NCBI GenBank assembly: GCA_032128875.1
Contig: JAVLKG010000002.1
Coordinates: forward strand, 480,001-544,000
Direction: 5' to 3'
Source: Candidatus Melainabacteria bacterium 17Bon1m
GTDB lineage: Bacteria; Cyanobacteriota; Vampirovibrionia; Obscuribacterales; Obscuribacteraceae
DNA length: 64,000 nt
The notes below the pieces were generated by a model, which worked only from the letters and a program-made list of their open reading frames with translations, was not told where the DNA came from and did no database searches. Each line of letters opens with the position of its first letter. The stretch's first letter is position 1. Below, one piece after another: positions 10,373 through 62,794 of the stretch. The position numbers and the translations under genes were made by a program.

Positions 10373-10435
10373 TTTGTTATTCCGGTGTTTGGGATTCTAT
10401 TTTTTCGGACGAAAATTTGTTTTTAAATCCTGTGC

Positions 10436-11272
10436 TTATGAAGCAACCAGATAGTCCTTGATGTTCGAGCTCTTGAGTAATTCTTGAACAAGTTCTTCAG
10501 GTGAATGACCTTGGTGAACAACACAGCTTCCACCAATTTCACCGACCTTTTCAGTGGCGGCAACGATTGTCGGAGAGCCCTTCAGACCACAACGCTCAAT
10601 ATCGGCACCGACCAAATCGAGATCGATTGTTTTGATGAATTTGCCTAATTCTTCCGGATTGCGCTGCAACTGCTGCACTCTGTAAGTTCCGGCAAAAGAC
10701 TTATATTCGAGCGGATGATAGGAATTCGCAACGGTGACTAGTACCGGCGGGTCGACTACAACCTTCTGGTACCCGCCTTCAATAATGCGTCGTGCATGAA
10801 GTTTTTCATTCTCAATCGAGAAATCTTCACAGTAAGTGACCTGTGGAAGGTTCAATCTTTCCGCCAGCTGCGGTCCGACTTGAGCCGTATCACCGTCAGT
10901 TGTTTGCAAGCCACAGAAAATGAAGTCGAATTTGCCTACATAGTTGATTACTTTGTAAAGCGCATAAGCGGTCGCCAAAGTGTCTGAAGCTGCCAGCCGG
11001 CGGTCTGAAAGGAGAAATCCGCGATCTACGCCGTGTTCCAGAGCTTCCAGGAGGATTTCTACTGCCGGGGGCGGGCCCATAGAAATTGCTGTGACAGTGC
11101 CGCCGTATTTCTTTTTGACATGTAAGGCTGCTTGCAGTGCATATCGATCAAACGGGTTCAGCATTCGTTTGGCGCGCGCCCGGTCAATTGTGCCGTCCGG
11201 GTTGATACCCGCTTTAGAACCCTGGTCGGGCACCTGCTTGACCATCACAAAGATGTTGTACGACCGTGCCAT
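10436..11272 (-). CDS. etfB: Electron transfer flavoprotein beta subunit (EtfB/FixA)
   Basis: VKQVPD, NPFD, SMGPP, SDTLAT, DGDTAQVGPQLAE and GLKGSPT. Confidence 0.96.
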   Translation of the reverse strand: MARSYNIFVMVKQVPDQGSKAGINPDGTIDRARAKRMLNPFDRYALQAALHVKKKYGGTVTAISMGPPPAVEILLEALEHGVDRGFLLSDRRLAASDTLATAYALYKVINYVGKFDFIFCGLQTTDGDTAQVGPQLAERLNLPQVTYCEDFSIENEKLHARRIIEGGYQKVVVDPPVLVTVANSYHPLEYKSFAGTYRVQQLQRNPEELGKFIKTIDLDLVGADIERCGLKGSPTIVAATEKVGEIGGSCVVHQGHSPEELVQELLKSSNIKDYLVAS

Positions 11273-39870: not shown

Positions 39871-40076
39871 AACGTATCCTCCAAAGCTGGCCGTTGCGGG
39901 GTTTCCGCAGTTTGCTCCCGACTCCCTTCTAATGTGACTCTTGGTAACTAGGGGTCATAGTAAGCGTAAGACGAAGTCATAATAACACCGTCTTAGTACA
40001 GACTCTGTTGGTGTACTGTAAAATCATGCCCGGCTGCAAAGGGCGCCGGACGGCTAAAGTAAGCCTTGTTTTTTAC

Positions 40077-41264
40077 ATGAGCAATTCAAATTCCACTTAT
40101 CACCGCAAGGGCTTCGGCCTCAAAGACGAGATTCACGGCGAGCTCAAGGCTGCCTACGAATCGGCTTTGATTGCTGAGCTGAGAGAAAATAACAACACTC
40201 TGGTCCGTTACGGCTTAACCATCAAGCTCGCTTCGGCGTTCGGATTTTGCTGGGGCGTCGACCGAGCCGTTTCGATGGCTTACGAGACCCGCCGTCATTT
40301 CCCGGACAAACGCATCTGGATTACAAACGAGATCATTCACAACCCGGTAGTCAATCAAAATCTTCGCGAGATGCAAATCGATTTCGTTGAGGTCAAATCT
40401 GACGGGACCAAAGACTTCTCCCATGTGAAAGAAGGCGAAGTTGTTATTTTGCCTGCTTTCGGTGCATCCGTAGAAGAGATGGATTTGCTCGAATCGAAAA
40501 AATGCGAAATCGTTGACACCACCTGCCCGTGGGTATCAAGGGTGTGGAATCGAGTCGCTAAGTACGAGCAAGGAGAATTTACTGCGATTATTCACGGTAA
40601 ATACAATCACGAAGAAACAATCGCGACTTCATCGAGAGCCCGTCACTATCTGATTGTTCAAAACATGTCCGAAGCCAATTGGGTGGCTGAATATATTTTG
40701 AATGGCGGCAAGAAAGAAGAATTCCTCGAGCGGTTTAAATCGGCTCATTCTAAAGAATTCGATCCTGACGAGCGCCTGGTGAGAATTGGCGTAGCCAACC
40801 AAACCACAATGCTCAAGGGCGAAACAGAACAAATCGGCAAACTGTTTGAGCGCACGATGCTCTCAAAGTACGGTCCGGAGCAATTGGACAAACATTTCTT
40901 GAGCCCCGGCGACACCATATGTGATGCCACGCAAGAGCGGCAGGATGCCATGCTCAATCTCATTGAAGAGAAACTTGATTTAGTTCTCGTGATTGGCGGC
41001 TTCAATTCCTCGAATACCGGCCATTTGCATGAAATAGCCGATCACAGAAAAATCCGTTCGTATCATATTGATGGACCCTCTTGCATAGGACCCGGCAATC
41101 AGATTAAGCACAAGCCGCAAAATTCAGTCGAATGCATAGTAGAGAACAATTGGCTTCCGGATGGCGATCTGACTATAGGAGTTACTGCTGGCGCATCTAC
41201 TCCTGACCAGGTTGTAGCGGAAGTTTTAGAAGCAGTATTTGCGATGCGCGGAGGCGCGAAGTGA
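40077..41264 (+). CDS. ispH: 4-hydroxy-3-methylbut-2-enyl diphosphate reductase (cyanobacterial/plant-type long form)
   Basis: YHRKGFG N-terminal extension, [46 protein letters not shown] and [10 protein letters not shown]. Confidence 0.97.
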
Positions 41265-42316
41265 CATCTCCAGCCCTCAGCGATAAACTTGCCTCGGCTC
41301 CTTTCATGCAGGCGCTCAGACGTGAGAAGTCTGATTACACGCCGGTCTGGCTGATGCGCCAAGCCGGACGTTTTATGCCGGAATATCGCGAAGTTCGCTC
41401 GAAAACAGGTTTTCTTGAACTTTGCCACAATCCACAGCTTTGCGCTGAAGTGACTGTAATGGCCGTCGACTTGTTGAAGGTTGATGCCGCGATCATTTTC
41501 TCTGATATTTTGCTTCCGCTGCAGTCTTTAGGTTGCGGATTGGAATTTGTCAAAGGCGATGGACCGGTCATTCATAATCCAGTTCGTACTATTGACGATG
41601 TGGAAAAATTGCCTGCCATCGATTGCAAAGACAGCCTTTCGTATGTCCTCGAAGCAGTTAGAACTACCCGCCGAGAACTTCCGGAAAACATTCCCCTGAT
41701 AGGTTTTGCAGGAGCGCCATTTACGCTGGCTTCGTATTTGATTGAAGGCGGATCTTCGCGTAATTTCGAGAAAACCAAGCGCTTTATGTACACGCAAAGG
41801 CGTGCCTGGGACAAACTCATGCAGCATCTTTCCAAGATAATTACCGACCATCTCAACAATCAAATTGACGCAGGCGCGCAAGCTGTGCAGATTTTCGACA
41901 GTTGGGTTGGTTGTCTTGGCCAATCCGATTACACTGAATTCGTGCTGCCACATGTCGCACGCACCATATCCGGTATTAAGAAGGGCGCTCCGGTAATTCA
42001 CTTCGGAACGGGCACATCAGCTTTGCTCGAACTTTTGAGACAGGCCGGTGGAGACGTTATCGGCATTGACTGGAGAATCGAGTTGGCATCGGCCTGGCAA
42101 AAGGTGGGCTACGACAGGGCCGTTCAAGGCAATCTGGATCCGGTTGTGCTCTTTGCTGATAAAGATGAAATCAAAAGGCGCGCTGCGAATGTTCTCAAAC
42201 AGGCTGACGGCAGACCGGGGCACGTTTTCAATCTCGGTCACGGAGTGCTTCCTGAAACACCATATGAAAATGTGAAATATCTGGTAGAGATAGTTCACGA
42301 ACTCGGTCGCAAATGA
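41261..42316 (+). CDS. hemE: Uroporphyrinogen decarboxylase
   Basis: [46 protein letters not shown] and FNLGHG. Confidence 0.97.
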
Positions 42317-43785
42317 CATCGCTTGCCAAGAAAGTTGTCATCATAGGTGGTGGCATATCAGGATTATCCGCAGCATTTCGATTGACGCAACTATGCGGTG
42401 ATGAACCAATCGAAGTAACCCTAATCGAGGCTAGCTCCCGCTTTGGTGGCGTAATAAGAACTCAATTTGTCGACAATTGTCTGATTGAGCATGGTCCCGA
42501 TAATATGTTGACTGCTAAGCCGTGGGGTGTAAATCTCATGAAAGAGCTTGGCATGGAAAAACAAATCGTCGAGACCGATGAAGCAAATCGTCGTGCTTTC
42601 ATTGCTGCAAAAGACGGTCTTCTTCCCATGCCTGAAGGTTTTCGTTTAATAGCACCAGCAAGCATTGCCGCACTTGCCGCGTCTCCTTGTTTGAGTCTTG
42701 CAGGAAAGCTGAGAGCTGTATGTGAGACTCTAGTTCCACGCCACGAAAAATTGTCATCTGGTAGTTTGCCGGATGATTTTGACGAGAGTCTTAGCAGTTT
42801 CGTGACCCGGCGGTTGGGAAAAGAAGCGCTCGATAAGCTGGCTCAGCCATTGTTTTCCGGCATTTATACGGCTGATCCAGAAACCCTCAGCATGCGTGCT
42901 ACCATGCCGCAATTTCTCGAATATGAAGCACAGTATGGCAGCGTTATTCGTGGTCTGAAGTCCTCGGGCAAAGAGAATGGCAAAGCTGAAGCCGTTCGAT
43001 ACAGTATGTTTATCGCTCCGCAAAGAGGCATGGGGTCAATTGTCGACGCGCTGGTCGATGAATTGAAGCGCCATAATAATGTCTCGCTCCGGACTGAAAC
43101 ACGTGTCACTGATCTGAATTTTTCTACCTGCGAAAAACAATGGGCTGTAAAACTTGCCGATCAATCAACCATCAACGCAGATGCAGTCCTTCTCTGTCTG
43201 CCAGCGCATGGAGCTGCAAAATTATTGCGCGAGACAAATGCTGAAATCAGTGAACTCTTAGCGTTTATAAACTATGCATCGTCTGCAGTCGTCAACTTTA
43301 TTGTCGAGCGTGAACGGGTTCTGCACCCCTTAGATGGCTTTGGTTTTGTTGTGCCTGCCGAACTTGGAAAACACGTTCTTGCCGGCAGTTTTTCCAGCGT
43401 GAAGTTTAAAAATCGGGCGCCGGAAGGTCTGACTGTATTGCGAGCATTCGTGGGCGGAGCTCTATTTCCTGAGATGCTGATGCTGTCGGATGCGGAAATA
43501 CGCGATCGAGCGTTTGAAGATTTGAGCTTTTATTTGTCTATCAGTCCACCGGCTCGCGGTTTGCCCTACAAGCATGCCTCAGTGACACGGTGGAATAATT
43601 CTATGCCGCAGTATAAAGTCGGACATCGAAACACTGTGCGGGCGATTGAGAAGCAGATTGAAACTCTCAGCGGCGTTTTCCTTTGTGGCGCAGCCTATGA
43701 GGGCGTCGGTATCCCGGACTGTATTCGCAGTGCAGACAAAGCTGCCGAATCTGTTTATCTTTCTCTCTTCGCTACTGTTTCATAA
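42313..43785 (+). CDS. hemY: HemY-type protoporphyrinogen/coproporphyrinogen oxidase (FAD)
   Basis: IIGGGISGLSAA, EHGPD, GIYTADP, GFGFVVP, MPQYKVGH and YEGVGIPDCI; ATGA overlap with hemE. Confidence 0.93.
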   Translation: MTSLAKKVVIIGGGISGLSAAFRLTQLCGDEPIEVTLIEASSRFGGVIRTQFVDNCLIEHGPDNMLTAKPWGVNLMKELGMEKQIVETDEANRRAFIAAKDGLLPMPEGFRLIAPASIAALAASPCLSLAGKLRAVCETLVPRHEKLSSGSLPDDFDESLSSFVTRRLGKEALDKLAQPLFSGIYTADPETLSMRATMPQFLEYEAQYGSVIRGLKSSGKENGKAEAVRYSMFIAPQRGMGSIVDALVDELKRHNNVSLRTETRVTDLNFSTCEKQWAVKLADQSTINADAVLLCLPAHGAAKLLRETNAEISELLAFINYASSAVVNFIVERERVLHPLDGFGFVVPAELGKHVLAGSFSSVKFKNRAPEGLTVLRAFVGGALFPEMLMLSDAEIRDRAFEDLSFYLSISPPARGLPYKHASVTRWNNSMPQYKVGHRNTVRAIEKQIETLSGVFLCGAAYEGVGIPDCIRSADKAAESVYLSLFATVS

Positions 43786-50944: not shown

Positions 50945-52222
50945 TTATTGTGCGCCTGCGCCTGAGCGTTGTGCGAGGCGATTTTTCTCTGCCAATTCGC
51001 GAACGTGTGCAAGTCTTCTTTCCATTTTCTTTTGGGTGATGCCGTTCATCATCATTTTCGGTACTGGCAAACCAGTGTCGATGTGCGAAGACAGTTCGAG
51101 CGTAGTCGATTTGCCGTCTGCTGAAGGGGTTAGTACCCAGCTGCCTTCCATCGATTTGAACTTGTCTGATTTGACCATTTGATAGTCGATGCGACGATTA
51201 GGAATTTCCTGCGTGTTTATCAAGCAGGTCGCCGAACCAATCATTGGCAGTGCAGTAAATTTCTGCTCCAATTGTGACTCGTTGACGCCTTGTCTCATGA
51301 TTTTGCTGTATGCAAGTTCTGGGTCAACCTTTCTCTGCTCGTGAACAGCGTTGAATACGACATCAGGCGGCGCCTTAATGACGATAGATGCTTTTACTCT
51401 CGACTTACCGCTATTCAAGTTTGGTTTTGGTGTCTCTGCTTGAACAGCTTGAGCGGTCGATTGTTTTTCTTGCTGTGCTGCAGATTCCTTTTTGACTTTG
51501 GAAATTCTGTCTCCGAAGACGCCTGGAAGCAGCCGACTTGTCTTGCCCTCATTCTTATCGTCTGAAGACTTATCTTCGTTTTTTGCTTCCTTTTCTTTCT
51601 TCTCTTTCTTTTCCTTCTTTGTTTCGGCCTTGGATTCAGTTTTAGACTCAGGCACCGTATTTGGTGACGGCTTGGCCGCGATTGCTGTAGGTTTTTTTGC
51701 TGGTGCCGCTATTTGCTCTGCAGAATCTAGATCTTGGATGTGCGACTTATATGCAGGAGTTGCTTTTGTATTTACATGTGCAACTTCGTAGTCTGCACTT
51801 TCTTCGAGAGTTGGCTGTTGCACGCGTGCCGGTGGTGCTTTTACTGCAACCGGCTCTGCTTGTCTTTGAACTTGCTGAGCAACTTGATGCTCTATATGTT
51901 GTTCTTCTCTGGCAAGCGTCTTAAGCACTGCCGCTTGAGCCGTCAAGGTTTCGTGCAATGAATTCTGTTTTTGTTCGATAACAGTGGTGCGTTTATTCAT
52001 CTGCAGTTGCAGCTGAGTCATTTGCGCCTGCAATTGCGTCAATTGCTGCTGAATCTGATAGAGCTGTGCTTGCAGCGTTTGCGGAGAATTAGCATCCTTA
52101 TCTTCGCTACCGAACAGTCCTTTAGCTTGCGCGGAAGAACCAAGGATGGTGCAAAGGACTAAAGATATGGCAACTGCAATAGTTTGCCGTTTGAGCGATG
52201 CTCTCAAATCGTTCTTAATCAC
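50945..52222 (-). CDS. Exported protein with Gln-rich coiled coil, charged linker and C-terminal SRPBCC/START (Polyketide_cyc) domain
   Basis: Signal peptide ending SAQA; LQAQL heptads; C-terminal VKASIVIKAPPDVVF...IDYQMVKSDKFKSMEGSWVL. GTG start at 52222 preferred. Confidence 0.8.
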   Translation of the reverse strand: MIKNDLRASLKRQTIAVAISLVLCTILGSSAQAKGLFGSEDKDANSPQTLQAQLYQIQQQLTQLQAQMTQLQLQMNKRTTVIEQKQNSLHETLTAQAAVLKTLAREEQHIEHQVAQQVQRQAEPVAVKAPPARVQQPTLEESADYEVAHVNTKATPAYKSHIQDLDSAEQIAAPAKKPTAIAAKPSPNTVPESKTESKAETKKEKKEKKEKEAKNEDKSSDDKNEGKTSRLLPGVFGDRISKVKKESAAQQEKQSTAQAVQAETPKPNLNSGKSRVKASIVIKAPPDVVFNAVHEQRKVDPELAYSKIMRQGVNESQLEQKFTALPMIGSATCLINTQEIPNRRIDYQMVKSDKFKSMEGSWVLTPSADGKSTTLELSSHIDTGLPVPKMMMNGITQKKMERRLAHVRELAEKNRLAQRSGAGAQ

Positions 52223-52465
52223 GTGCGTCTCTCTTTCTACGGATACGATAAAAAGCGAAAAAACCTGTATCGGTGGCGCTTTTAGCACATCGGCAAAGCT
52301 TATCATGACAAGTGGGGGATTTGAAGAGGAGTAAGACTAAAAGAAAGTCATACACTTGTCATGAGTTTCGCGAGTCTGTCTAATGCTCAGTCTCGCACTA
52401 AAAAATTGACGGCTGCTTGATAACTGTTTTGGCCGGCAAGCAGATTCGGAAATTGGCGAGAAAGC

Positions 52466-53116
52466 TTACACGCCTATTGGAATGAACTTCGGCACAAGTC
52501 TGCGCCATTTCATCTTTTCTGCGTATTCGCGGTAGCCGTCGCCCAAGCTTTCGAGCAAGATCTTTTCTTCGTATTTGGCGCGATTCAGCCACAAAGGTGC
52601 GACTACACAAACGGTAAAAAGCACCAGCGGGACAGATGTTGAAGCCAGCGAAGCGCCGAGCAGCGATTGAATGATTCCGGAATAGGCTGGGTGCATGACG
52701 AATTTCAGCAATCCGTCGCTTTTCACTTTGTGATCTTCAAGAATTTCGGCGTCAGTGGTGAAAGCTTCCCCAAGAGAAATCCAACCGCCGATCATGAAAA
52801 TCAAACCGCTTATCAAAACGAGAATTCCCAACCAGGAAATGATCATCGTAATGCCGGTAGGTTCGCCCTGACCGAGCGTGATCAACGGATGCGCCCAATC
52901 TGCTTTTATAACGTCGGAGTACATCAAAAATGCAGGAATTAAAGCGAAGATCGTTGCTACCGAAGCATATTGAGGTGCGCGTTGAATGATGAAGTTCTTT
53001 TCGTATTTAACTCCGGTTCCGCGGCGAATGAAGGCTTTGGTAAGAACCGGCGCTGCAATTACCGCACCCACTGATACCAAGGCTACGGTCACCAATGTTG
53101 GGACGTTGAAACTCAC
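52466..53116 (-). CDS. ICMT/PEMT-family integral membrane methyltransferase
   Basis: Multiple TMs, LGEAFT, GLLKFVMHPAYSG and YEEKILLESLGDGYREY...RRLVP. Confidence 0.85.
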   Translation of the reverse strand: MSFNVPTLVTVALVSVGAVIAAPVLTKAFIRRGTGVKYEKNFIIQRAPQYASVATIFALIPAFLMYSDVIKADWAHPLITLGQGEPTGITMIISWLGILVLISGLIFMIGGWISLGEAFTTDAEILEDHKVKSDGLLKFVMHPAYSGIIQSLLGASLASTSVPLVLFTVCVVAPLWLNRAKYEEKILLESLGDGYREYAEKMKWRRLVPKFIPIGV

Positions 53117-53361: not shown

Positions 53362-54063
53362 TTAGCGAGCGTCTTCGAGTAATTGCTCGTCGGACTCAAG
53401 CGGGCATTTCCAGAGTCTGTAGAGTGCATTGAGCACTGTTTGAGCGGGCTGTGGCAATTCGTCACCAGGTGCCACTTCGATATCGTCCAGCATACGTCTC
53501 ATCCAGAGTGCGTGACGAGTATGCGGACGTGAGTGATGTCTCAGCCATTCCAAGCCGTCCTCAACTTCTTCTTTCGTATATTCAGAAGCATGATCGGCGA
53601 AATACTTTTCAAAAATTTCGAGAGTCTGGCGTGCATACGCTGTTGCGGCCAACTCTGCCGTTACTACTGCCAGTACTCCGTCTTTATGATTTGGGCTTTC
53701 GCACCATCTGCGCATAACCTGGCAAAGATGATGGCTTGCTTCGTTCAAAAGATCAGTCTTCAATTGTTCGTCCGTAATGCCTGCCAGGTGGCACTGTTTG
53801 ACGTACATCTGCTGGTAGGTCAGCTCTTCATCAGCTAATTGGTTGAACAGCTTTTTGCCGGCGTCCATGTTATCGGGCAGACAATCTCTGACAAGCGAGA
53901 TATTGCGCGGCAACTCCCTGATAAATGGCCAGAGGCTCAAACAGATTTCGCTTCCCAGAGGGATGACCGTTTCGTCTTGGATGCCGCCACTAAAGGGACT
54001 TGTTTTGCATCCGAGCGTTATTCTTTCGATAAGGGTTGGCATCCACCCCGATTTACGCGACAT
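53362..54063 (-). CDS. Heme-oxygenase-like (TenA/PqqC/CADD/UndA-type) helical metalloprotein
   Basis: LWPFIRE, QLADEELTY...CHLAG, VTAELAA and WLRHHSRPHTRH follow the HO-like ligand spacing; the start may be 54075 (TTG). Confidence 0.65.
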   Translation of the reverse strand: MSRKSGWMPTLIERITLGCKTSPFSGGIQDETVIPLGSEICLSLWPFIRELPRNISLVRDCLPDNMDAGKKLFNQLADEELTYQQMYVKQCHLAGITDEQLKTDLLNEASHHLCQVMRRWCESPNHKDGVLAVVTAELAATAYARQTLEIFEKYFADHASEYTKEEVEDGLEWLRHHSRPHTRHALWMRRMLDDIEVAPGDELPQPAQTVLNALYRLWKCPLESDEQLLEDAR

Positions 54064-54331
54064 ATTAGATTCCAATAACCTATAAAACCCCAGTCATATA
54101 CTTTACTACGCAAATTAGACAGTCCTATGTAATCTAACTAATGAATGTTAAGCACCGGTGAGAAATCCCCTAAAAGTCTGCAGAACTGCGTTATCAGGGG
54201 GATGTAGAGATCTCAAGCAGTGTTAAACTCAGGCGCTGGCGCACATTTGCGGATTTTTACGAACTTAATTTCGATATTCGAGCCAGAATATATATTTTGG
54301 TTTTCAAATCTTAGGGAATTCCCCCAGCTCA

Positions 54332-55399
54332 ATGCCTTCAGTCGACAGCAGTCAAGAAAAGCAGACGGCACAGGCCGAAGAAAAGGTTGTTTCACCTTTG
54401 CCCTTGCCCATGCAGAGTCTGGCAACGGGAGAAAAGCTGCAGAGCAGAACGGATAGCTCGGTCGAAATCGTCAATGTTCGTGGTGCGAACCTGCAATTGC
54501 GTAAATTTCTCCCTCAAGATTCATCGCTGAATTTTGCTCCCGAACAACCAGCCAAAATCAACGAGAATAAACCAGTCGCTCTCTACTTGCACGGCATTGA
54601 AGGCCATGCCGAATGGTTCGCTAATACTGCTTCTGTGCTCAATCAAGCCGGCATTTCGGTCTATGCGCCGGACAGGCGCGGAGCCGGTCTTAATTTCTTC
54701 GAGCGCGGGCACGTGGAAAATGCCCAAGTGTTGATCGAAGACGTTGAGTTTTTCCTGAGCCTGGTTGCCGAAAGACACCCCGGGGCGCCGCTCTTTCTTA
54801 TCGGGAACTGCTGGGGAGCGAAATTGGCCGCTATTGTTGCTTCTGAAACACACAAATGGTCGACCAAAAGCGCAGAACATCCCGCAAAACCTGAACTTAC
54901 GGGCCTGGTCTTAATTTGCCCGGCAATAAAAACCAAGCCCGACCTGAAATTCTCTGACAAACTGTCGATTGCAGCTGCTTTGATCGCAGGAAAAGACGCC
55001 CTCAAACAACAGCTGCCGATTCCTCTCACCACTTTGATGTTTACCGACAATCATCTCTTTCTCGACTATATCGATAAAGACCCTCTACGACTGACGTCTG
55101 CTAGTAAAGCCTTTTACTTTGCCAGTTTTCTTCTCAGTCTAAAGTCCGCTCGAATCGCGCCATCCATCAAGATTCCCACCCTGATTCTCCAGTCAGATAA
55201 CGATGCGATTGTCGATGTTCCCGGCATCGAAAGTTGGTTTTCCAAAATTGCAACTGCCGATAAGAGATACAAAAAATACGACGGCGCTGCGCACAGTATG
55301 GATTTCGATAAGCGGCAATTTATGGATTATGCTCGCGACCTTACCGAATGGATAGAGGAGATCGGCACCCAAAGTCAAAAGCAGGGTGTCTTGCAATGA
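54332..55399 (+). CDS. Alpha/beta hydrolase (Hydrolase_4) with Cys nucleophile
   Basis: YLHGIEGHAEWF, PDRRGAG, RGHV, GNCWG, SDNDAIV and AAHSM. Confidence 0.88.
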   Translation: MPSVDSSQEKQTAQAEEKVVSPLPLPMQSLATGEKLQSRTDSSVEIVNVRGANLQLRKFLPQDSSLNFAPEQPAKINENKPVALYLHGIEGHAEWFANTASVLNQAGISVYAPDRRGAGLNFFERGHVENAQVLIEDVEFFLSLVAERHPGAPLFLIGNCWGAKLAAIVASETHKWSTKSAEHPAKPELTGLVLICPAIKTKPDLKFSDKLSIAAALIAGKDALKQQLPIPLTTLMFTDNHLFLDYIDKDPLRLTSASKAFYFASFLLSLKSARIAPSIKIPTLILQSDNDAIVDVPGIESWFSKIATADKRYKKYDGAAHSMDFDKRQFMDYARDLTEWIEEIGTQSQKQGVLQ

Positions 55400-56625
55400 T
55401 CAAAATCACTGATATTCAAGTATCGACTGTCCTTCTGCCGTTTCGATTTGCGTTTAAACACAGCCTGGCTTCGCGCTCATTTTCGACCAACGTCATCGTC
55501 AAAGTGAAGATGGAAGACACCGCAACGGGTGCCACTGTATTTGGTTTGGGCGAAAGCGTTCCTAGAGACTACGTCACCGGTGAAACCTGCGAAACCGCAC
55601 TAGCTGAGATTAAGAGCAACTTTGCTCCCAGATTTCTCAACCAGAATCTCGATCAAGAACGCAAAGCGACTGAATCAGTAAGGCGAATGATAGAAGAGGT
55701 CGCTGCCTCTCTCAATGTCTACGGACGCAGAGTGGGAGCCTCTTTCTGCGCCCTGGAACTGGCACTTCTTGATGCTGCCGCCAAAATTGAGGGTGTTTCT
55801 ATTAGCCAGTGGTTGGCTGCCGAAAACGGCCGAGACGCTGTTGAATCAATTGATTACGGTGGCGTCATTCCTTTTGGAAAACGCAAAGTGCTCGCCGCAT
55901 TGCTTTACTTTTATAAGTTCTACGGATACAAAACCGTCAAATTGAAAGTCGGCGACGATCCAGACCTCGATCTCTTTACAGTCCGAAAAGCACGCGAACT
56001 TCTGGGATCCTCCACCGTCATTAGAGTTGATGCGAATTGCGCCTGGGACTTCGACAGCACAGTTGATTTTTCTCAAAAGGCGCAGGGCTACAACATAGCC
56101 TCTATTGAGCAACCGGTGCCCTTCGACCGGCTGGACGAATTGGTCGAGCTGACAAAGGTTTTGAAGGAAGAAATAGTCGTTGACGAATCATTGTGTACAG
56201 TGCAAGAGGCTCAAGACCTGGCGACAAAAAGAGCGTGTGGCGGTTTCAACATAAGAATTTCCAAGGTTGGTGGTCTTTTGGCTGCTCAGAAAATAATTGA
56301 CATTGCCCACAAGAATGGAATTAGCATCCATCTTGGCGCTCAGGTTGGCGAGAGCGGTATTTTGACGGCGGCCGGAAGAGCTTTGGCATGCGCGAATCAG
56401 AAATTTGAAAATTACGAAGGCGCCGCTAATTTTTTCCTCCTCAAAGAAGATCTGACAAAAGAAAATATGACCGCCGGTTTTGGCGGCAGAGGCAAAATGC
56501 CTAACGGTAAAGGTATTGGCGTGACGGTAAACGAGCAAAATTTAAATCGGTTTGAAGTGAAGCTTCAATCTGCCGATGCGAGTTCCGCTGCCCTTGAGGC
56601 GACAGGGAGAGGTCTTCATGTTTAA
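55396..56625 (+). CDS. Enolase-superfamily enzyme (muconate lactonising enzyme/dipeptide epimerase subgroup)
   Basis: FKHSLASR, GLGESVPRDYVTGE, ELALLD, KLKVG, RVDAN, IEQP, VDES and NIRISKVGG; ATGA overlap with the upstream stop. Confidence 0.88.
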   Translation: MIKITDIQVSTVLLPFRFAFKHSLASRSFSTNVIVKVKMEDTATGATVFGLGESVPRDYVTGETCETALAEIKSNFAPRFLNQNLDQERKATESVRRMIEEVAASLNVYGRRVGASFCALELALLDAAAKIEGVSISQWLAAENGRDAVESIDYGGVIPFGKRKVLAALLYFYKFYGYKTVKLKVGDDPDLDLFTVRKARELLGSSTVIRVDANCAWDFDSTVDFSQKAQGYNIASIEQPVPFDRLDELVELTKVLKEEIVVDESLCTVQEAQDLATKRACGGFNIRISKVGGLLAAQKIIDIAHKNGISIHLGAQVGESGILTAAGRALACANQKFENYEGAANFFLLKEDLTKENMTAGFGGRGKMPNGKGIGVTVNEQNLNRFEVKLQSADASSAALEATGRGLHV

Positions 56626-58285
56626 ACGTCCCAGTTTGATTCATATGGGTCAGTTATATAGGCGCGCGACGCACATTCGGCGTTTTTTCAACGCTGTCAA
56701 AAATCCTCAAGAAGTGCAAGCGCAGAAATTGCTCGGCTATATTCGCGCCAATGAAAATAGCGCCTTCGGCAAAGCAAATAATTTCGACAAGATACGCACC
56801 GTCGAAGACTATCAACGCTATGTTCGCCCCTGCAAATATGAAGATCTTCAGCCATATATCGATAAGGTTCGCGCCGGTGCTACCAATCAATTGACGCGCG
56901 AAAATCCATTTATGTTTGCCACTACCAGTGGCACCACTGCCCTTCCGAAATTCATTCCTATAACGGCAACGCATATTCGCGATTACACGCATGCGTTTCA
57001 AGTGCACAACTATCACTTGATTCAAGATTATCCGCGCGCCGCGGACGGTCGATTTCTTTTAATCACAAGCAATGATGAAGAAGGGCGCACCGAATCTAAC
57101 ATTCCCTATGGTGCTGTTTCCGGCATGTTGAATCGCCGGCAACCGGAGATCATCCGCAAGCATTTTGCTACTCCATACGAACTTTGCAAAATCAAAAATG
57201 TCGATGCCAAATACTATTTGATGTTGCGCTCTGCTCTCGGATTGGATGTAACGGCGGTGATTTGCTGCAATCCATCTAGTTTGCTTTTGCTGGCAGATCA
57301 AATGAAAGAGCACGCAGCAGATTTGGTCGCCGACCTCTTTGACGGCACGGTCAAAAACACATACAGACCCCCTGCTGAATACAGCGATGCCTTTGCGAAA
57401 TTCTTCGTACCCAACAAAGAACGTGCTCGCCAACTCGACAAAATGCTTGAGAAAGACGGCTTGCTCCTGCCTCGCACTGTCTGGTCGAATTTGGAAATTC
57501 TGGTGTCCTGGAAAGGTGGACCGATGGCTTTCTATTTGGACAAGCTTCCTGAAATGTATGGAAATATGCCGGTCCGTGATTTCGGTTATATGGCAAGCGA
57601 GGGGCGCGGATCCATTCCGATTACCAGCGAAGGCTCAGGTGGCGTTTTGGCTATTACTAGCCACTTCTATGAATTCGTAGAGGAAGACGCGCACGAACAG
57701 CCCAATCCGAAATTCCTGCTTGCGCATCAACTGAAAAAGGGTGGACGTTATTTCATCTACTTCACCACCGGCGCCGGTCTATATCGGTACAACATCAATG
57801 ATTTGGTGGAAGTTGTAGATTTTGAGGGCAATGCACCGATTATTCGATTTGTTCAAAAGGGCATGGGTGTCAGCTCAATAACTGGGGAAAAACTCACCGA
57901 AGAGCAGGTTTTGGTTGCACTGACGATGGCAAAAACTCAGTTGGGCTTGAGCGAAGTCGAACATTGCACGGTGGAAGTAGAACTCGGCTCACCGCCTTTC
58001 TACGTGGCATTCGCAGAGACGAGTTCTGAGTTGCCGGACTCCGTGAAAAATCAGTTTATTCGTATATTTGATGATTCACTCAAAAATCAAAATCCAGAGT
58101 ATCAAGATAAGCGGTCAACCAAACGGCTTGGATTGCCGGTCATGCGCACTCTGCCCTCGGGGACTTACATGAAATTGAGACAACAACGCGTGCTGCAGGG
58201 GGCACCTGAAGCGCAGGTTAAAATACCTCTCTTGAGTGCGCACAGCTCCTTTACCGGGCAGTTGGCGCAAATCCAAGTCTCATAA
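56618..58285 (+). CDS. GH3-family acyl acid-amido synthetase (ANL superfamily)
   Basis: ATTSGTTALPKFIP, YMASEG, FYEF, GLYRYNINDLV, GEKLTEEQV, NPEY and QVKIPLL. Confidence 0.9.
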   Translation: MFKRPSLIHMGQLYRRATHIRRFFNAVKNPQEVQAQKLLGYIRANENSAFGKANNFDKIRTVEDYQRYVRPCKYEDLQPYIDKVRAGATNQLTRENPFMFATTSGTTALPKFIPITATHIRDYTHAFQVHNYHLIQDYPRAADGRFLLITSNDEEGRTESNIPYGAVSGMLNRRQPEIIRKHFATPYELCKIKNVDAKYYLMLRSALGLDVTAVICCNPSSLLLLADQMKEHAADLVADLFDGTVKNTYRPPAEYSDAFAKFFVPNKERARQLDKMLEKDGLLLPRTVWSNLEILVSWKGGPMAFYLDKLPEMYGNMPVRDFGYMASEGRGSIPITSEGSGGVLAITSHFYEFVEEDAHEQPNPKFLLAHQLKKGGRYFIYFTTGAGLYRYNINDLVEVVDFEGNAPIIRFVQKGMGVSSITGEKLTEEQVLVALTMAKTQLGLSEVEHCTVEVELGSPPFYVAFAETSSELPDSVKNQFIRIFDDSLKNQNPEYQDKRSTKRLGLPVMRTLPSGTYMKLRQQRVLQGAPEAQVKIPLLSAHSSFTGQLAQIQVS

Positions 58286-58303
58286 CAAGGAAAGGAAAAT
58301 TCA

Positions 58304-59356
58304 ATGACTGGAAAAGTAAAGGTGGCGATAACGGGAGCCTCTGGGCTCGTAGGAAGTCACCTGGCAGAGCATCTCGTTCTGAGCGGATACGATGTTGTTG
58401 CTATGTCGCGGAATGCTTCAAGTGAAAAGTGTTTGACTGCAATTACCGGTCCTGGCAAATTGACTTTGCTAAATGTTGATGTGAATGATGAAAACGCATT
58501 GCAACACGCTTTTACCGGCTGTGATGTTGTCGTCCATGCGGCAGGCACCGTTGATCCTTACGGCTCGCGCCAGACAATTTTCAAAACCAATGTTGAAGGC
58601 ACTCGCAACGCCATGTCTGCCGCTCGCAATCGCGGGGTAAAGCAGTTTATCTTTGTCAGCAGCCTGTCTGTAATTACAGGTCAAGGTGACCAGTTCGATG
58701 TCGATGAAACTGCCGAGCTCAAACCTTGCGGCGAGTCGTATGCCGATTCGAAAGTAGAAGCCGAAAGGCTGGTGATGAGCGAGCCTGAAACCTCTTCGAT
58801 GAAAGTTACGTCAGTGCGTCCCGGCTTTATATATGGGCCCAGAGAGAAAGCCTGGATGCCTCGCTTGATCAATTCAATTGGCACAGGTAAGGCAATGTTG
58901 ATTGGTGGTGGCGTCAAAGAAACCAACGTCATCTATGTCGGTAATCTGAGCAAAGCGATTGAAAATGCCTTTCTCAATCCAAAAGCGTACGGACAAGTAT
59001 TCAATTTGACCGATGGGGAAAAGGTCACCAAAAAAGAACTCTTTGATGCGATTGCTGATGGGTTGGGGCTTCCTAGAGTATCGAAACAGATACCTGTTCC
59101 AGTTGCGCGCTTTGCCTGCGAGTTGATTTCCTCTTTTGCGCCTCTTTTGCCAGTGGAAAAGCAGCGCGGACTGGCACGCTTTTCGCGAGCAGCATTCCGC
59201 CTGGCCGGAGTGAATCAGGGCTTTTCGGTCAAGAAGGCAGAACGAGACCTAAACTATGTCAATCGCACCTCATTTAAGGAAGGCATGGCCAAGACTCTGG
59301 AATACTTCAAAGCTGAGCGCCAGGGTGCGCAAAAAGAGGTTGCAACGCGCAGATGA
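58304..59356 (+). CDS. Extended SDR, 3-beta-HSD/OleD-like NAD-dependent dehydrogenase
   Basis: TGASGLVG, VVHAAG, NVEGT, FVSS, YADSK and RPGFIYGP. Confidence 0.88.
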   Translation: MTGKVKVAITGASGLVGSHLAEHLVLSGYDVVAMSRNASSEKCLTAITGPGKLTLLNVDVNDENALQHAFTGCDVVVHAAGTVDPYGSRQTIFKTNVEGTRNAMSAARNRGVKQFIFVSSLSVITGQGDQFDVDETAELKPCGESYADSKVEAERLVMSEPETSSMKVTSVRPGFIYGPREKAWMPRLINSIGTGKAMLIGGGVKETNVIYVGNLSKAIENAFLNPKAYGQVFNLTDGEKVTKKELFDAIADGLGLPRVSKQIPVPVARFACELISSFAPLLPVEKQRGLARFSRAAFRLAGVNQGFSVKKAERDLNYVNRTSFKEGMAKTLEYFKAERQGAQKEVATRR

Positions 59357-59613
59357 TGAATGCCAAAGAGTTTGTAATCGACTATATAGGCAGGCACAAA
59401 CACCCTGTTAATGCTTGCTTGCACTTGGTCGGTGTGCCGTCGGCGTTTTACGGCATGTTTTTATTTGTAACCGGCAAATTTGCCTGGGGTTCTGCACTCA
59501 TTGTCCTTGGCTATTTTCTTCAATACCTTGGTCACAAAGCGCAGGGAAATGAAGTTGGCGAAGTTACTCTTATAAAACACCTATGGAAAAAAGTTTCCGC
59601 ACCGCGGAGTTGA
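59353..59613 (+). CDS. Mini DUF962/Mpo1-like membrane protein
   Basis: YIGRHKHPVNACLHLVGVP and LQYLGHKAQGN His motifs; overlaps the upstream stop. Confidence 0.8.
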   Translation: MMNAKEFVIDYIGRHKHPVNACLHLVGVPSAFYGMFLFVTGKFAWGSALIVLGYFLQYLGHKAQGNEVGEVTLIKHLWKKVSAPRS

Positions 59614-59617
59614 ACAG

Positions 59618-60634
59618 ATGAACGAAATATTGACGCAGCCCAATGAATTGAAATCGCGATTCGATCTCGCCGGTCGAGGCCCTATTGTTGTCGATGGTGC
59701 GACCGGTTATCTCGGCAGTCACCTTGTCGCTGCACTTGCCGCATCCGGAGCCGATATTCGCTGCTTGGTGCATAAAGGCAGCAAAGCGGAGGATGTGCAG
59801 GTTCTCAAAAATTTGGGCGCTAAGGTTTTTGTTGGCGAACTAACAGGTAATGATGAGCAAGTCACCAGCGCATTTAAAGATGCGCGAGTCGGCGTTCATC
59901 TGATTGGCAGCATCGCGCCCAAGAAGGGGCTCAGCCACGATCTTCTCCATGTCGTTATGACCGATTCATTTATTGAAAAGTCTAAAGCAGGCGGAGTGGA
60001 AAATGCACTCATGGTCACCGCACTTGGTACCAAAGCAAATGCTCCCAGCACTTATCATGCCACCAAATGGTTGGCAGAAGAAAGCCTGCGTAAGAGTGGT
60101 TTGAATTCAACTATCCTGCGCCCGTCGCTGCTTGTGGGACGTCAGGTTGGACGAAGAAACAGTAAACTGGTCGATCGACTGCTTAAGGTTATTGCTGAGA
60201 AAAAAGCGGTGCCTCTGGTTAATGGTGGCGCAAACAAGTTGCAGCCGCTCTTCATCGGCGATATGGCAATGGCTGCAGTTGCGTCGATTGATAAGCTGAC
60301 CGGTGCAAATGGCGAAGTATCCGGCGGCGTCAATGACCACGGCTCAAAAGATCCGATTGAGCTGGGAGGCAACGAAATATTGCCCATGCGCGACTTTGTA
60401 AAACAGCTGATGGCCGTGCTTCACGTCGATAAATCAATAGTTACCCTTCCGTACCCGATTGCAATGGCGGCGGCTACTGTCTGTCAGTTGATTCAAGAAG
60501 TTCCAGTGCTTTCGTGCGATCAGGTCAAGCTGTCAATGCGGGATAATATCTGCACCGATAATCGAATTGAGGAGCTTCTGGGTGCGAAGCCTGTGCCCTT
60601 GAGTACCGCTCTTCAGGTCTATGCGTCTAAGTAG
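59618..60634 (+). CDS. Atypical SDR, NDUFA9/NAD(P)H-binding family
   Basis: DGATGYLG, VHLIG, TALG, YHATKWLAEE, TILRPS and LQPLFIGD. Confidence 0.85.
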   Translation: MNEILTQPNELKSRFDLAGRGPIVVDGATGYLGSHLVAALAASGADIRCLVHKGSKAEDVQVLKNLGAKVFVGELTGNDEQVTSAFKDARVGVHLIGSIAPKKGLSHDLLHVVMTDSFIEKSKAGGVENALMVTALGTKANAPSTYHATKWLAEESLRKSGLNSTILRPSLLVGRQVGRRNSKLVDRLLKVIAEKKAVPLVNGGANKLQPLFIGDMAMAAVASIDKLTGANGEVSGGVNDHGSKDPIELGGNEILPMRDFVKQLMAVLHVDKSIVTLPYPIAMAAATVCQLIQEVPVLSCDQVKLSMRDNICTDNRIEELLGAKPVPLSTALQVYASK

Positions 60635-60640
60635 GAATAA

Positions 60641-61672
60641 ATGGAAGCTCAGGGTCCCTTGAAAATTTTAGTCACCGGCGCAAGCGGTTTTATTGGCACC
60701 AGCCTGGTGCCGAAGCTTGTGGCATTAGGACATAAAGTTCGCACCATGGGGCGCAGTAGCTCGTGCCCCAAGGACTTTCAAGGATTGGCTTTGGAGCACA
60801 AGCGCGGGGATGTTACCAATCCTGAGCAGGTGCAGGACGCGGTTGCCGGCTGCGACGTTGTCTATCACCTGGCTGGTCTTGTCTCTTACAAGAAAAGGGA
60901 TTTGAATCGGCAGTATGCGGTCAATGTGCTCGGAACGCGTAATGTCCTTGATGCATGCTTGCGCAATAACGTGAAGCGCGTCATTCATACAAGCTCTGTT
61001 GCTGCTATGGGCATACCTGAAGAAGGACAGATTGCCGATGAAGAGTTCGAGTACAACCTGCATGGACTAGGACTTTCTTACTGCGACACCAAGCATGAAG
61101 CAGAGCTGGAAGTAAATTCTTTCGTCCGGCAGGGCTTACCTGTCATTATGCTCAACCCCGGTATCATATTTGGTGAAGGCGATACTCATCCTCATCATCA
61201 CGTGATCTTCGGCGCCATGGCTAAAGGATGGGCGGTAGGCGTGCCGCCTGGCGGTGTGCCGTTCTCAGACATCAATGATGTCGTAGACGCTCATATCAAC
61301 GCGCTTACGCAAGGGCGCACAGGCGAGAGATATGTGCTTGTCAGTGCAAACCTGACTATGAAAGAAGCAGGCACGATTTTTTCTAAAATCTTCGGGACGA
61401 GAGCACCTATGCTGGAAATCCCTGGTCCTTTGCTGGTTGGTTTAGGAACAGCAGTAGAAACGATATTTCCTCTCTTCGGACTCAATCCGGCGCTATCCAG
61501 ACAGGTTGCCTGGCTCAGTCAGCATAAAATCTTCTTTTCTTCGAAGAAGGCAGAAGAGGAGCTGAATTTCCACGCCACTCCATTTTCAGAAACGATTAAA
61601 AGAACCACGCCCTATTACCTGGGCAAATCTTCAAATGGAAAAGATGGGGCGCGAACATCTGTAAGAGTTTAA
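60641..61672 (+). CDS. Extended SDR, HpnA/dihydroflavonol-reductase-like
   Basis: VTGASGFIG, VYHLAG, NVLGTRNV, HTSSVAA, YCDTK, NPGIIFG and GRTGERY. Confidence 0.88.
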   Translation: MEAQGPLKILVTGASGFIGTSLVPKLVALGHKVRTMGRSSSCPKDFQGLALEHKRGDVTNPEQVQDAVAGCDVVYHLAGLVSYKKRDLNRQYAVNVLGTRNVLDACLRNNVKRVIHTSSVAAMGIPEEGQIADEEFEYNLHGLGLSYCDTKHEAELEVNSFVRQGLPVIMLNPGIIFGEGDTHPHHHVIFGAMAKGWAVGVPPGGVPFSDINDVVDAHINALTQGRTGERYVLVSANLTMKEAGTIFSKIFGTRAPMLEIPGPLLVGLGTAVETIFPLFGLNPALSRQVAWLSQHKIFFSSKKAEEELNFHATPFSETIKRTTPYYLGKSSNGKDGARTSVRV

Positions 61673-61741
61673 TACAGGCTCTTTCGTTCGATCACATCAA
61701 ATTGGCGAGCACTAAATATGGTGCTAACGCGCTCTTTCAAT

Positions 61742-62461
61742 CTACCGTGTTTCACCGACTGTGCGGGACTGTGTTTGTCCTTGCGTTCCTGTTTGTACAG
61801 GTGTAACGGTGCCGGGTGCAGCCGTTGTTGTTGCCGATGTGGCTTCCTGAATGCGACGCAGAGACAGCTTTTGTTCTTGCACGTTCTGATACAAAATTCT
61901 GTAATAGCGCGAAAGCATTTCGGTCTTCGCTGCCTTATAACCAGTCAGACATTCAGCAAACGCTTCATCGTACTTGCCGACCGAACTAAGTGTCTTGATC
62001 AAGCTGGCCCGGGCAGGGTCGTAATTAGCATTGCTCTTGAGTGCTTCTCTAAAGCAGGCTTCGGCATCATTGAGCCTACCCATTTTCGAATACGCTTCAC
62101 CCAGCGTGTAATTGTCGAAAGGAGTAGCTTTTGCCATCTTCTGAATGATTATCAGCTGGTACATAGCCTCTTGAAGCGAGCCATGGCGCAAAAGGGCAAA
62201 AGCGAGGTAGCGGCGGGCGGACACACTGTCCGGATCGGCTGTTACTGCTGCTGCCAAAATGCGAATGGCACCTTCATAGTTGCCTTTGCGCATTTGCTCA
62301 TAACCTTTTTGCAAATACTGTCCGACAGTAGCGCTTACGACTTTGGTTCTTGCCTGCGGCTTTGCCGGTGCCGAAGCAGTGGCTTGAGCTACATTCGATG
62401 AGATGCCGGTCGCTACGATAATCGCCCCGAGGGTAAACATCGCTGTCTTTCTGCCTGACAT
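61742..62461 (-). CDS. Secreted TPR protein
   Basis: Start moved to MSGRK (GGAG RBS); signal peptide and TPRs (QKGYEQM...ARRYLAFALL). Confidence 0.8.
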   Translation of the reverse strand: MSGRKTAMFTLGAIIVATGISSNVAQATASAPAKPQARTKVVSATVGQYLQKGYEQMRKGNYEGAIRILAAAVTADPDSVSARRYLAFALLRHGSLQEAMYQLIIIQKMAKATPFDNYTLGEAYSKMGRLNDAEACFREALKSNANYDPARASLIKTLSSVGKYDEAFAECLTGYKAAKTEMLSRYYRILYQNVQEQKLSLRRIQEATSATTTAAPGTVTPVQTGTQGQTQSRTVGETR

Positions 62462-62794
62462 CAAAAGCTCTCCTTGCCGATTCCGAACTTGTTTTAAAAC
62501 GCCATAGACGTTCCTAGCCAAATAGTAACACCATGAAAACATTGTGATTCAGTTTTCGGCCCAGTCCTGCCAATTTTGGCAATCAACGAATCAGCTTGGC
62601 GGACAAAGCCATGTACCAATCATGTTTGCCAGGAGGTTAAAAGGACCTCTTTGGAACTTGGTAATGCCACAGTTTGAATTGCAACTATGGCTACGATAAA
62701 GAATGGAAATTAGCTTAAGCCGTGCAGCAAAACTGCCCTAAATACGTCTCGGCATTGTGCCATAAAAATAGATCGCAATGCGAAACTACAATAT

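Follow-up and report, generated by a model that had tools for sequence, protein, structure and literature searches.

The first function described for a bacterial GH3 protein, in 2025, concerns an ornithine lipid (PMC12493201). The GH3-like enzyme OlsH of Singulisphaera acidiphila is reported to form N-acyl ornithine from a free fatty acid with ATP and Mg2+, the alpha/beta hydrolase OlsI, encoded in the same operon, is reported to carry out the O-acylation, and the gene of the methyltransferase OlsG is placed between the olsH and olsI genes (PMC12493201, JBC 2025). The authors of that work state that they expect other amino acids to be substrates of other bacterial GH3s (PMC12493201). Here, a 64,000-nucleotide stretch of DNA from Candidatus Melainabacteria bacterium 17Bon1m (hereafter the window), located on contig 2 of a 7.55 Mb assembly that is 93% complete, was analysed for a predicted operon of seven co-oriented genes at positions 54332-61672 of the plus strand. 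These genes encode, in this order, an alpha/beta hydrolase with a Cys nucleophile, an enolase-superfamily enzyme, a GH3 protein, a short-chain dehydrogenase/reductase (SDR1), a DUF962 protein and two further enzymes of the same type (SDR2 and SDR3). The seven-gene set is a real, conserved and uncharacterised predicted operon. Together with a divergently transcribed gene for a methyltransferase of the ICMT family, it is tentatively read, with somewhat less than even confidence, as encoding enzymes that make and tailor a membrane-associated lipid of the N-acyl amino acid type. The basis of this reading at the level of sequence is the set of GH3 adenylation motifs, the Cys-Asp-His triad of the hydrolase, the KxK motif and metal ligands of the enolase-type enzyme, and the cofactor and YxxxK motifs of the SDRs.

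The locus resembles the OlsH/OlsI system in that a bacterial GH3 and an alpha/beta hydrolase are encoded in one operon, here separated by the enolase-type gene only, and the likeness extends to the three GH3 nucleotide-binding motifs, an associated methyltransferase and a likely lipid context. However, the methyltransferase found here is an ICMT-type membrane enzyme and not OlsG, and neither the enolase-type enzyme nor the three SDRs nor the DUF962 protein is matched by any part of OlsHI. In addition, the orders with OlsH homologues that are listed in the available text of a review (PMC12971839) do not name the lineage of the host. On this reading, the operon would be a relative in logic, and not an orthologue, of the OlsH/OlsI route. 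An earlier reading of this DNA made from the sequence alone (the sequence-only reading) had stated that no characterised bacterial pathway has this gene set; this holds for the full set in the literature searched, whereas for the core of GH3 and hydrolase a counterpart exists in OlsH/OlsI, as that route is described in PMC12493201. A literature search, with subscription journals outside its coverage, returned no description of a module combining GH3 with an enolase-superfamily enzyme, and the OlsH paper and its review were its sole relevant finds for the gene set.

Gene content and predicted enzymes

The open reading frames (ORFs) of the operon, all on the plus strand, are 54332-55399, 55348-56625, 56576-58285, 58304-59356, 59353-59613, 59618-60634 and 60641-61672. 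The starts of the second and third genes were set at 55396 and 56618, which are Met residues aligning with the starts of homologues, and the latter gives a GH3 of 555 residues, equal in length to its best database matches, which it covers at 100%. The junctions, whose values rest on these two revised starts, are in order overlaps of 4 and 8 nt, a gap of 18 nt, another overlap of 4 nt and gaps of 4 and 6 nt, so that no gap exceeds 18 nt. The coordinates thus bear out the earlier description of seven co-oriented genes with overlaps or gaps under 20 bp, and the families that had been assigned to all seven were confirmed by Pfam:

54332..55399, plus strand: alpha/beta hydrolase with a nucleophile-elbow Cys, extended at the N-terminus by about 75 residues of hydrophilic character (Pfam Hydrolase_4, 135 bits)
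55396..56625, plus strand: enolase-superfamily enzyme of the subgroup named after muconate lactonizing enzyme (MLE), with the strand-6 Lys replaced by Arg, R287 (Pfam MR_MLE_C, 139 bits; MR_MLE_N, 29 bits)
56618..58285, plus strand: GH3 acyl-acid amido synthetase homologue, a predicted ATP-dependent adenylating ligase (Pfam GH3/GH3_M/GH3_C)
58304..59356, plus strand: extended SDR1, 3-beta-HSD/OleD-like (Pfam 3Beta_HSD, 121 bits; Epimerase, 120 bits)
59353..59613, plus strand: DUF962/Mpo1-like membrane protein of 86 residues (Pfam, 43.3 bits)
59618..60634, plus strand: extended/atypical SDR2 (Pfam NAD_binding_10, 59 bits; Epimerase, 54 bits)
60641..61672, plus strand: extended SDR3, HpnA/SdmB-like (Pfam Epimerase, 115 bits; 3Beta_HSD, 99 bits)

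The GH3 protein matched the Pfam families GH3, GH3_M and GH3_C (PF03321, PF23571 and PF23572) with 206.3, 71.1 and 63.1 bits, all above the gathering cut-off of 23.6. Its nucleotide-binding motifs I to III are present as T-T-S-G-T-T-A-L-P-K, G-Y-M-A-S-E and G-L-Y-R-Y-N-I-N-D, following the definitions given for AtGH3.11 and OlsH in PMC12493201 (I, [ST]SGT[ST]xxxxK; II, YxxSE; III, GLYRYxxxD), and the residues T103, S104, G105, K111, E328, G387, L388, R390, Y391 and D395 are invariant in 20 GH3 sequences. The best match of solved structure is JAR1 (E 1e-28). The protein shares family and fold with the plant GH3s, such as JAR1, GH3.12/PBS3 and the indole-3-acetic acid-amido synthetases, and its motif III (G-L-Y-R-Y-x-x-x-D) comes nearer to the plant form than the motif quoted for OlsH does. 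However, its host is a bacterium, its operon contains lipid-type enzymes, and nothing points to a hormone-like acyl substrate. The source names of its best homologues are Candidatus Obscuribacterales or Melainabacteria. When a complex of the GH3 and the enolase-type enzyme was predicted, the score was 0.00, which counts neither way.

The enolase-type enzyme has as its nearest solved structures the dipeptide epimerases 3rit (E 7e-30), 1jpm/1tkk and 3q45, with the N-succinyl-Arg/Lys racemase 2p88 and N-acylamino acid racemases as further near relatives, and the substrate of every one of them is an N-acylated amino acid whose carboxylate is free. In the protein atlas, it matched generic 'dipeptide epimerase / OSBS family' clusters only. 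The strand-2 KxK and the Asp/Glu/Asp metal ligands align with residues of 1jpm/1tkk, and none of K182, K184, D212, E238, D263 and R287 varies among 12 cluster-linked sequences with identities as low as 30%. Members of the MLE subgroup are described as keeping catalytic lysines on strands 2 and 6 (bioRxiv 10.1101/2022.03.03.481873). In four alignments, R287 of the motif N-I-R-I-S-K-V-G-G stands opposite the catalytic Lys of strand 6, which is K268 of B. subtilis YkfB, as numbered along the alignment, and K263 of the Amycolatopsis N-succinylamino acid racemase (NSAR); the following G-G of the motif gives a gap-free alignment anchor. Arg was found at this position in 12/12 cluster-linked sequences, in 79 of 80 metagenome loci, which had been found with patterns of which the Arg motif was no part, and in all 120 database representatives among the matches listed. 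At the +3 position stands Lys (K290), as K271 does in the enzyme from B. subtilis, and in dipeptide epimerases this Lys is reported as a second-shell residue (10.1101/2022.03.03.481873). Thus, in comparison with the dipeptide epimerases and NSARs that are its best solved matches (3rit, 1tkk, 2p88, 1sja), the family keeps the KxK, the metal ligands and the +3 Lys; it differs in having Arg for the strand-6 Lys throughout, and in being linked to GH3 and hydrolase genes and not to murein-peptide or D-amino-acid genes. The host genome contains one high-scoring copy of the variant (523 bits; the second-best match has 141 bits).

The strand-6 Lys is reported to act as acid/base in the racemase reaction and as a charge partner only in the reaction of o-succinylbenzoate synthase (OSBS), where it is K263 (10.1101/2022.03.03.481873). 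With Arg in place of this Lys, a 1,1-proton transfer by the canonical two-base route is not to be expected. Judged by its residues, the family keeps a predicted N-acyl-amino-acid epimerase architecture minus one of the two bases, and two-base racemisation appears less likely than either an elimination or dehydration that uses a single base or an epimerisation of an atypical kind. The proposal of the sequence-only reading that the acyl chain is isomerised or cyclised found no support, as the nearest solved relatives use N-acylated amino acids and the Lys-to-Arg replacement leaves even that reaction uncertain. The muconate cycloisomerase model of NCBIfam was matched at 130 vs 335 bits. The MenC (OSBS) model gave a weak match as well (90.5 vs 200.65 bits), and the order of fold types in the operon, namely alpha/beta hydrolase, OSBS-type enolase and adenylating ligase, is the same as that of MenH-MenC-MenE in menaquinone/phylloquinone synthesis. 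However, such an analogue is highly improbable and was rejected, as MenB and MenD fall below cut-off in a genome that is 93% complete (174.5 vs 342.7 and 81.1 vs 244.2 bits), and the ICMT, di-iron oxygenase and FA_hydroxylase partners of the related loci do not fit it.

The nucleophile elbow of the hydrolase reads G-N-C-W-G, with Cys where the classic Ser-Asp-His triad has Ser, in a protein that scores above the Hydrolase_4 cut-off. Cys-type enzymes of the alpha/beta fold, such as polyhydroxyalkanoate synthase, favour acyl transfer. Across an alignment of 40 hydrolase sequences, 26 have Cys and 14 have Ser at the elbow column, the triad's Asp and His columns are kept, and all ten loci of this alignment in which the hydrolase follows the enolase are of the Ser type. 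No NCBIfam match named OlsI was obtained for the hydrolase at E <=0.01. Its closest solved structures are monoglyceride lipases (E 1.9e-15), which would also suit a role in salvage or catabolism, where lipids or conjugates from the environment or from prey would yield free fatty acids through the lipase-like hydrolase, the other enzymes would detoxify or recycle these acids, and GH3 conjugation would serve as a sink. The presence of genes for electron transfer flavoprotein (ETF) and ETF-QO elsewhere in the window and the dependence on free fatty acids noted in the OlsH paper (PMC12493201) are consistent with this role. However, neither beta-oxidation, transporter nor regulator genes lie in or beside the operon, and the presence throughout the order, the coupling to a methyltransferase and the oxygenase partners at distant loci look biosynthetic, which makes salvage quite unlikely. 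A second Hydrolase_4 alpha/beta hydrolase (152 bits) is encoded at 1975-2856 (minus strand) of the window, distant from the operon.

All three SDRs carry GxxGxxG and YxxxK. The best NCBIfam matches of SDR1 are OleD models, although at 153.2 and 149.6 bits vs 580, and its solved matches include sterol-4-alpha-carboxylate 3-dehydrogenase, while SDR3 matched HpnA at 236.6 vs 367.65 bits and SdmB at 167.2 vs 600. The DUF962 profile (PF06127) was matched at 43.3 bits against a cut-off of 24, over positions 2-64 of 95, in a protein of 86 residues that is 56-95% identical in relatives, and Pfam describes DUF962/Mpo1 as a 2-hydroxy fatty acid dioxygenase family.

These matches bear on another explanation, in which free carboxylic acids are the substrates of all core enzymes, either ahead of conjugation to an amino acid or with no such conjugation. 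Here, the hydrolase would free a 3-oxo or 3-hydroxy acid, the OleD-like SDR would reduce the 3-oxo acid, and the enolase-type enzyme would dehydrate the 3-hydroxy acid in a one-base, OSBS-like reaction; the GH3 would then activate the acid for an amide, for a beta-lactone as OleC does, or for transfer to a Cys and reduction by an SDR to an aldehyde as in LuxCDE. The gene order of hydrolase, enolase, GH3 and SDR fits this order of reactions, SDR1 is closest to OleD, which reduces free beta-keto acids, all three SDRs weakly match NAD_binding_4 and thioester-reductase models, and the family of the DUF962 protein is also in keeping with free-acid chemistry. The strand-6 Arg is compatible with a one-base reaction in which the residue stabilises charge only, as is described for K263 in OSBS (10.1101/2022.03.03.481873). 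Moreover, the sister family keeps the cluster with no GH3 in it, and the hydrolase there weakly matches Acyl_transf_2, the LuxD family (32.7 bits). The likeness to OleABCD and LuxCDE is that an alpha/beta hydrolase is combined with an adenylating enzyme and with an SDR of OleD-like or reductase type that acts on free fatty acids. However, no homologues of the OleA thiolase, OleB, OleC, LuxC or LuxE were seen in the cluster, and the hydrolase is a Hydrolase_4 protein with Cys, while OleB is a dehalogenase-like enzyme with an Asp nucleophile. The OleD and thioester-reductase matches are far under their cut-offs, the solved structures nearest to the enolase-type enzyme belong to epimerases of N-acyl amino acids and dipeptides and not to simple hydroxy-acid dehydratases, and, to our knowledge, every characterised GH3 forms amides. 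A free-acid pathway is regarded as rather unlikely, though it is the leading alternative.

Conservation in the order and recurrence in distant lineages

The seven genes occur in the same order in 11 of the 13 genome loci found via the GH3 (64-99% identity), the other two ending at contig ends, and in 7/7 further loci from other genera of the same family. At one of the latter loci (L123:10545-12193), the GH3 was matched in two segments that lie in different frames and join at about 11171, a possible frameshift or assembly error. The enolase variant was detected in all 61 genomes, covering 22/22 genera, of the order, and its occurrence in every sampled genome points to a housekeeping envelope lipid and not to a sporadic secondary metabolite.

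A different arrangement was observed in the sister family, where three loci (L120, L121 and L122) carry hydrolase, enolase, SDR1 and DUF962 genes without GH3, with about 190 nt separating the enolase and SDR1 genes. SDR2 follows DUF962 in the two of these loci that reach that far, and SDR3, the ICMT enzyme and the TenA-like protein encoded upstream of the operon gave no matches at the sister-family loci, the one long example of which is flanked by housekeeping genes. The hydrolase at these loci is the one with the weak match to the LuxD family mentioned above. Two of the three sister-family genomes encode a GH3 elsewhere, which is 44-47% identical to the type of a second GH3 of the host (described below) vs 35-37% to the cluster type. 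The same GH3-less form was found on a metagenome contig (L063). This GH3-less cluster means that the operon is not strictly GH3-centred, as the sequence-only reading had called it, although the seven-gene order with GH3 is kept in the family of the host. The deeply conserved pair is either enolase and GH3 or enolase and hydrolase.

Beyond the order, a GH3 match (E <=1e-10) was present in 59 of 301 sampled genomes of the phylum, with the small-genome family contributing 1 of 123. Among 19 GH3 loci in other genomes of the phylum, whose GH3s are 30-37% identical, the enolase gene lies directly beside GH3 in nine; genes at high-GC loci were called by GC3-filtered ORF calling. These nine loci are compact operons, and they include a Haem_oxygenas_2 gene (di-iron oxygenase type) upstream of the enolase (5/9), an ICMT gene following GH3 (3/9) and an FA_hydroxylase domain fused to GH3 (2/9). 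Loci at which the ICMT gene stands directly after GH3 are L017, L019, L031 and L053. Two of the nine were placed in Candidatus Sericytochromatia by the source names of their enolase matches, and one further enolase homologue is named from Candidatus Rokuibacteriota. The fusion proteins (L027:3006-5609, plus strand, and L030:1848-4490, minus strand) consist of an N-terminal FA_hydroxylase membrane di-iron domain, which we take to be of the OlsE family, and a full GH3, each beside an Arg-variant enolase; a leucine-carboxyl-methyltransferase-type gene lies near the second.

In metagenomes, where the loci were found via the enolase, GH3 is directly downstream of the enolase in 36 of the 62 loci with at least 500 nt of downstream sequence and in 40 of all 80. 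Hydrolase_4 genes are directly upstream of the enolase in 19 loci and directly downstream in 11, and a Haem_oxygenas_2-type gene is upstream in 16. The gene-neighbourhood check that had been suggested for the GH3 therefore showed that adjacency to the enolase recurs at deep divergence, although it is not universal. Confinement of the synteny to close relatives, which would have spoken against the suggested pathway, was not what was seen for the enolase-GH3 pair, as this pair does recur distantly, beside di-iron oxygenases and ICMT methyltransferases. Two further arrangements were observed around the enolase in these searches. An LpxL-type lipid A acyltransferase gene (L061:6004-7011 and L066:271-1293) overlaps an Arg-variant enolase gene, immediately upstream of it, without a GH3 or hydrolase neighbour. 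At L113:2142-8979, GH3, Methyltransf_20, two DUF1571 genes, an enolase-type gene and a Ser-type Hydrolase_4 are found in this order, and the L113 enolase is the sole one of the 80 without a match to the motif pattern.

The relationship between adjacency and GH3 phylogeny was examined in a quick maximum-likelihood tree of 48 GH3s, from which 15 rows (near-duplicates, partial sequences and loci repeating the window or the paralogue) had been dropped first. The label 'enolase-adjacent' changes three times in this tree, in which the metagenome rows were picked via the enolase and the genome rows alone are an unbiased sample. The ten non-adjacent GH3s from genomes form one clade, which includes the paralogue of the host itself. 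This paralogue, on contig 9 of the same genome (L016:9935-11626, plus strand), is 39% identical to the GH3 of the operon and has no enolase or hydrolase neighbour; it is flanked by genes for a GT2 glycosyltransferase and an LRV/HEAT-repeat protein, with a proline dehydrogenase homologue nearby.

Divergent upstream genes and the wider window

Upstream of the operon, on the opposite strand, the following features were identified:

50945..52306, minus strand: possible member, a membrane protein whose C-terminal domain is an SRPBCC domain of lipid-binding type (Pfam Polyketide_cyc2, 42.3 bits)
52466..53116, minus strand: ICMT-family membrane methyltransferase, probable member (Pfam PF04140, 40.7 bits vs 24)
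53362..54075, minus strand: TenA/CADD-like protein, probable accessory member (Pfam TENA_THI-4, 25.4 bits vs 22)
54076..54331, no strand: divergent intergenic region of 256 bp, presumed promoter region, between the TenA-like gene and the operon

The ICMT gene is present in every locus of the host's family that reaches its position, and its product did not reach the NCBIfam isoprenylcysteine methyltransferase equivalog (51.8 vs 160 bits). The TenA-like protein, whose best solved match is CADD/4-aminobenzoate synthase (E 2e-6), is kept in 10/10 reaching loci of the set found via the GH3 and in five of the seven loci from other genera. The functional unit thus probably reaches beyond 54332-61672, upstream to the divergent ICMT gene and, in most relatives, to the TenA-like gene. 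The SRPBCC gene is also syntenic in relatives, but so is the unrelated ppx, and its linkage is therefore weak. A scan of promoters and terminators gave counts that were not above those of shuffled sequences (8 vs 9.9; 13 vs 13.1).

Downstream of the operon, a 227-residue ORF at 61718-62401 (plus strand) without a family match lies antisense to, and almost wholly inside, a tetratricopeptide repeat (TPR) gene at 61742-62542 (minus strand), and is probably not a gene. Elsewhere in the window, housekeeping context is provided by the ETF-QO gene with those of ETF alpha and beta at 7546-11272 (minus strand) and by a row of IspH(LytB), HemE and amine-oxidase-type genes at 40008-43785 (plus strand). 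DNA near-identical to 54000-61800 (78-100% of sampled words) was found in runs labelled as plankton, aquifer, soil, drinking-water and oil-facility metagenomes from several studies. In three runs labelled as RNA-Seq, all from one sample that is possibly the source sample, all sampled words were present as contigs, which is compatible with DNA carry-over.

A candidate N-acyl amino acid lipid pathway

In the proposed synthesis of an N-acyl amino acid lipid, the GH3 would adenylate a free, possibly 3-hydroxy, fatty acid and join the acyl group to an amino acid. The Cys hydrolase, acting via a thioester, would either supply the free acid or O-acylate the product as OlsI does. The enolase-type enzyme would take the proton beside the free carboxylate of the conjugate, in a one-base beta-elimination or dehydration or an unusual epimerisation, and the ICMT enzyme may methylate the carboxylate of the conjugate. 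The OleD/HpnA-like SDRs and the DUF962 protein could act at beta- or alpha-oxygenated positions of the acyl chain. The recurrence of lipid-type partners in related loci, namely ICMT, the FA_hydroxylase domain fused to GH3 and the LpxL-type acyltransferase, supports the lipid part of this reading. The lipid-amino acid conjugate put forward by the sequence-only reading consequently remains the best reading, in view of the GH3 motifs, the monoglyceride-lipase matches and the ICMT and FA_hydroxylase partners, while the details of the route are held at less than even confidence.

Several observations weigh against the N-acyl amino acid lipid. None of the seven proteins reached a curated NCBIfam equivalog cut-off, and for the GH3 the OlsH equivalog model (NF052613) gave 104.2 vs 620 bits, its best stretch being residues 292-565 of the longest ORF only; as predicted from its sequence, the GH3 is not an OlsH equivalog. 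Plant GH3s use non-lipid acids too. The strand-6 Lys that racemases need is absent from the enolase-type enzyme, and a directly following GH3 is missing from 26 of the 62 metagenome enolase loci whose downstream sequence leaves space for one. Weightiest among these observations, the sister-family loci lack GH3, and the third genome of that family, which is 94% complete, has no GH3 at the Pfam threshold. Within the order, ppx and TPR genes are syntenic neighbours as well, so that synteny there is weak functional evidence. Finally, the invariant residues of the TenA-like protein do not make up the full six-ligand di-iron set, and a profile-profile comparison with the distant Haem_oxygenas_2 partners gave a probability of 18% over 19 columns, which does not support orthology.

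In a more far-reaching reading, which is conceivable but doubtful, the Arg-for-Lys enolase would represent a new reaction class of its superfamily, with either a hydroxy fatty acid or an amino acid linked to a lipid as substrate; it might, for instance, be a lyase that carries out beta-elimination with a single base and leaves a head group of dehydro-amino-acid or enoyl type. In concert with the GH3, a Cys hydrolase that forms a thioester and a methyl-ester step by the ICMT enzyme, it would build an undescribed envelope lipid that is universal in Obscuribacterales and present in several other phyla.

The operon is a concrete, order-wide case with extra chemistry, comprising a clade of enolases that lacks one of the two catalytic Lys residues, a Cys-type hydrolase, three SDRs, a DUF962 protein and an ICMT enzyme. 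Solving it would assign functions to several large generic families and would add a new reaction to a textbook mechanistic superfamily, and it might bring to light a new membrane lipid made by non-photosynthetic cyanobacterial relatives.

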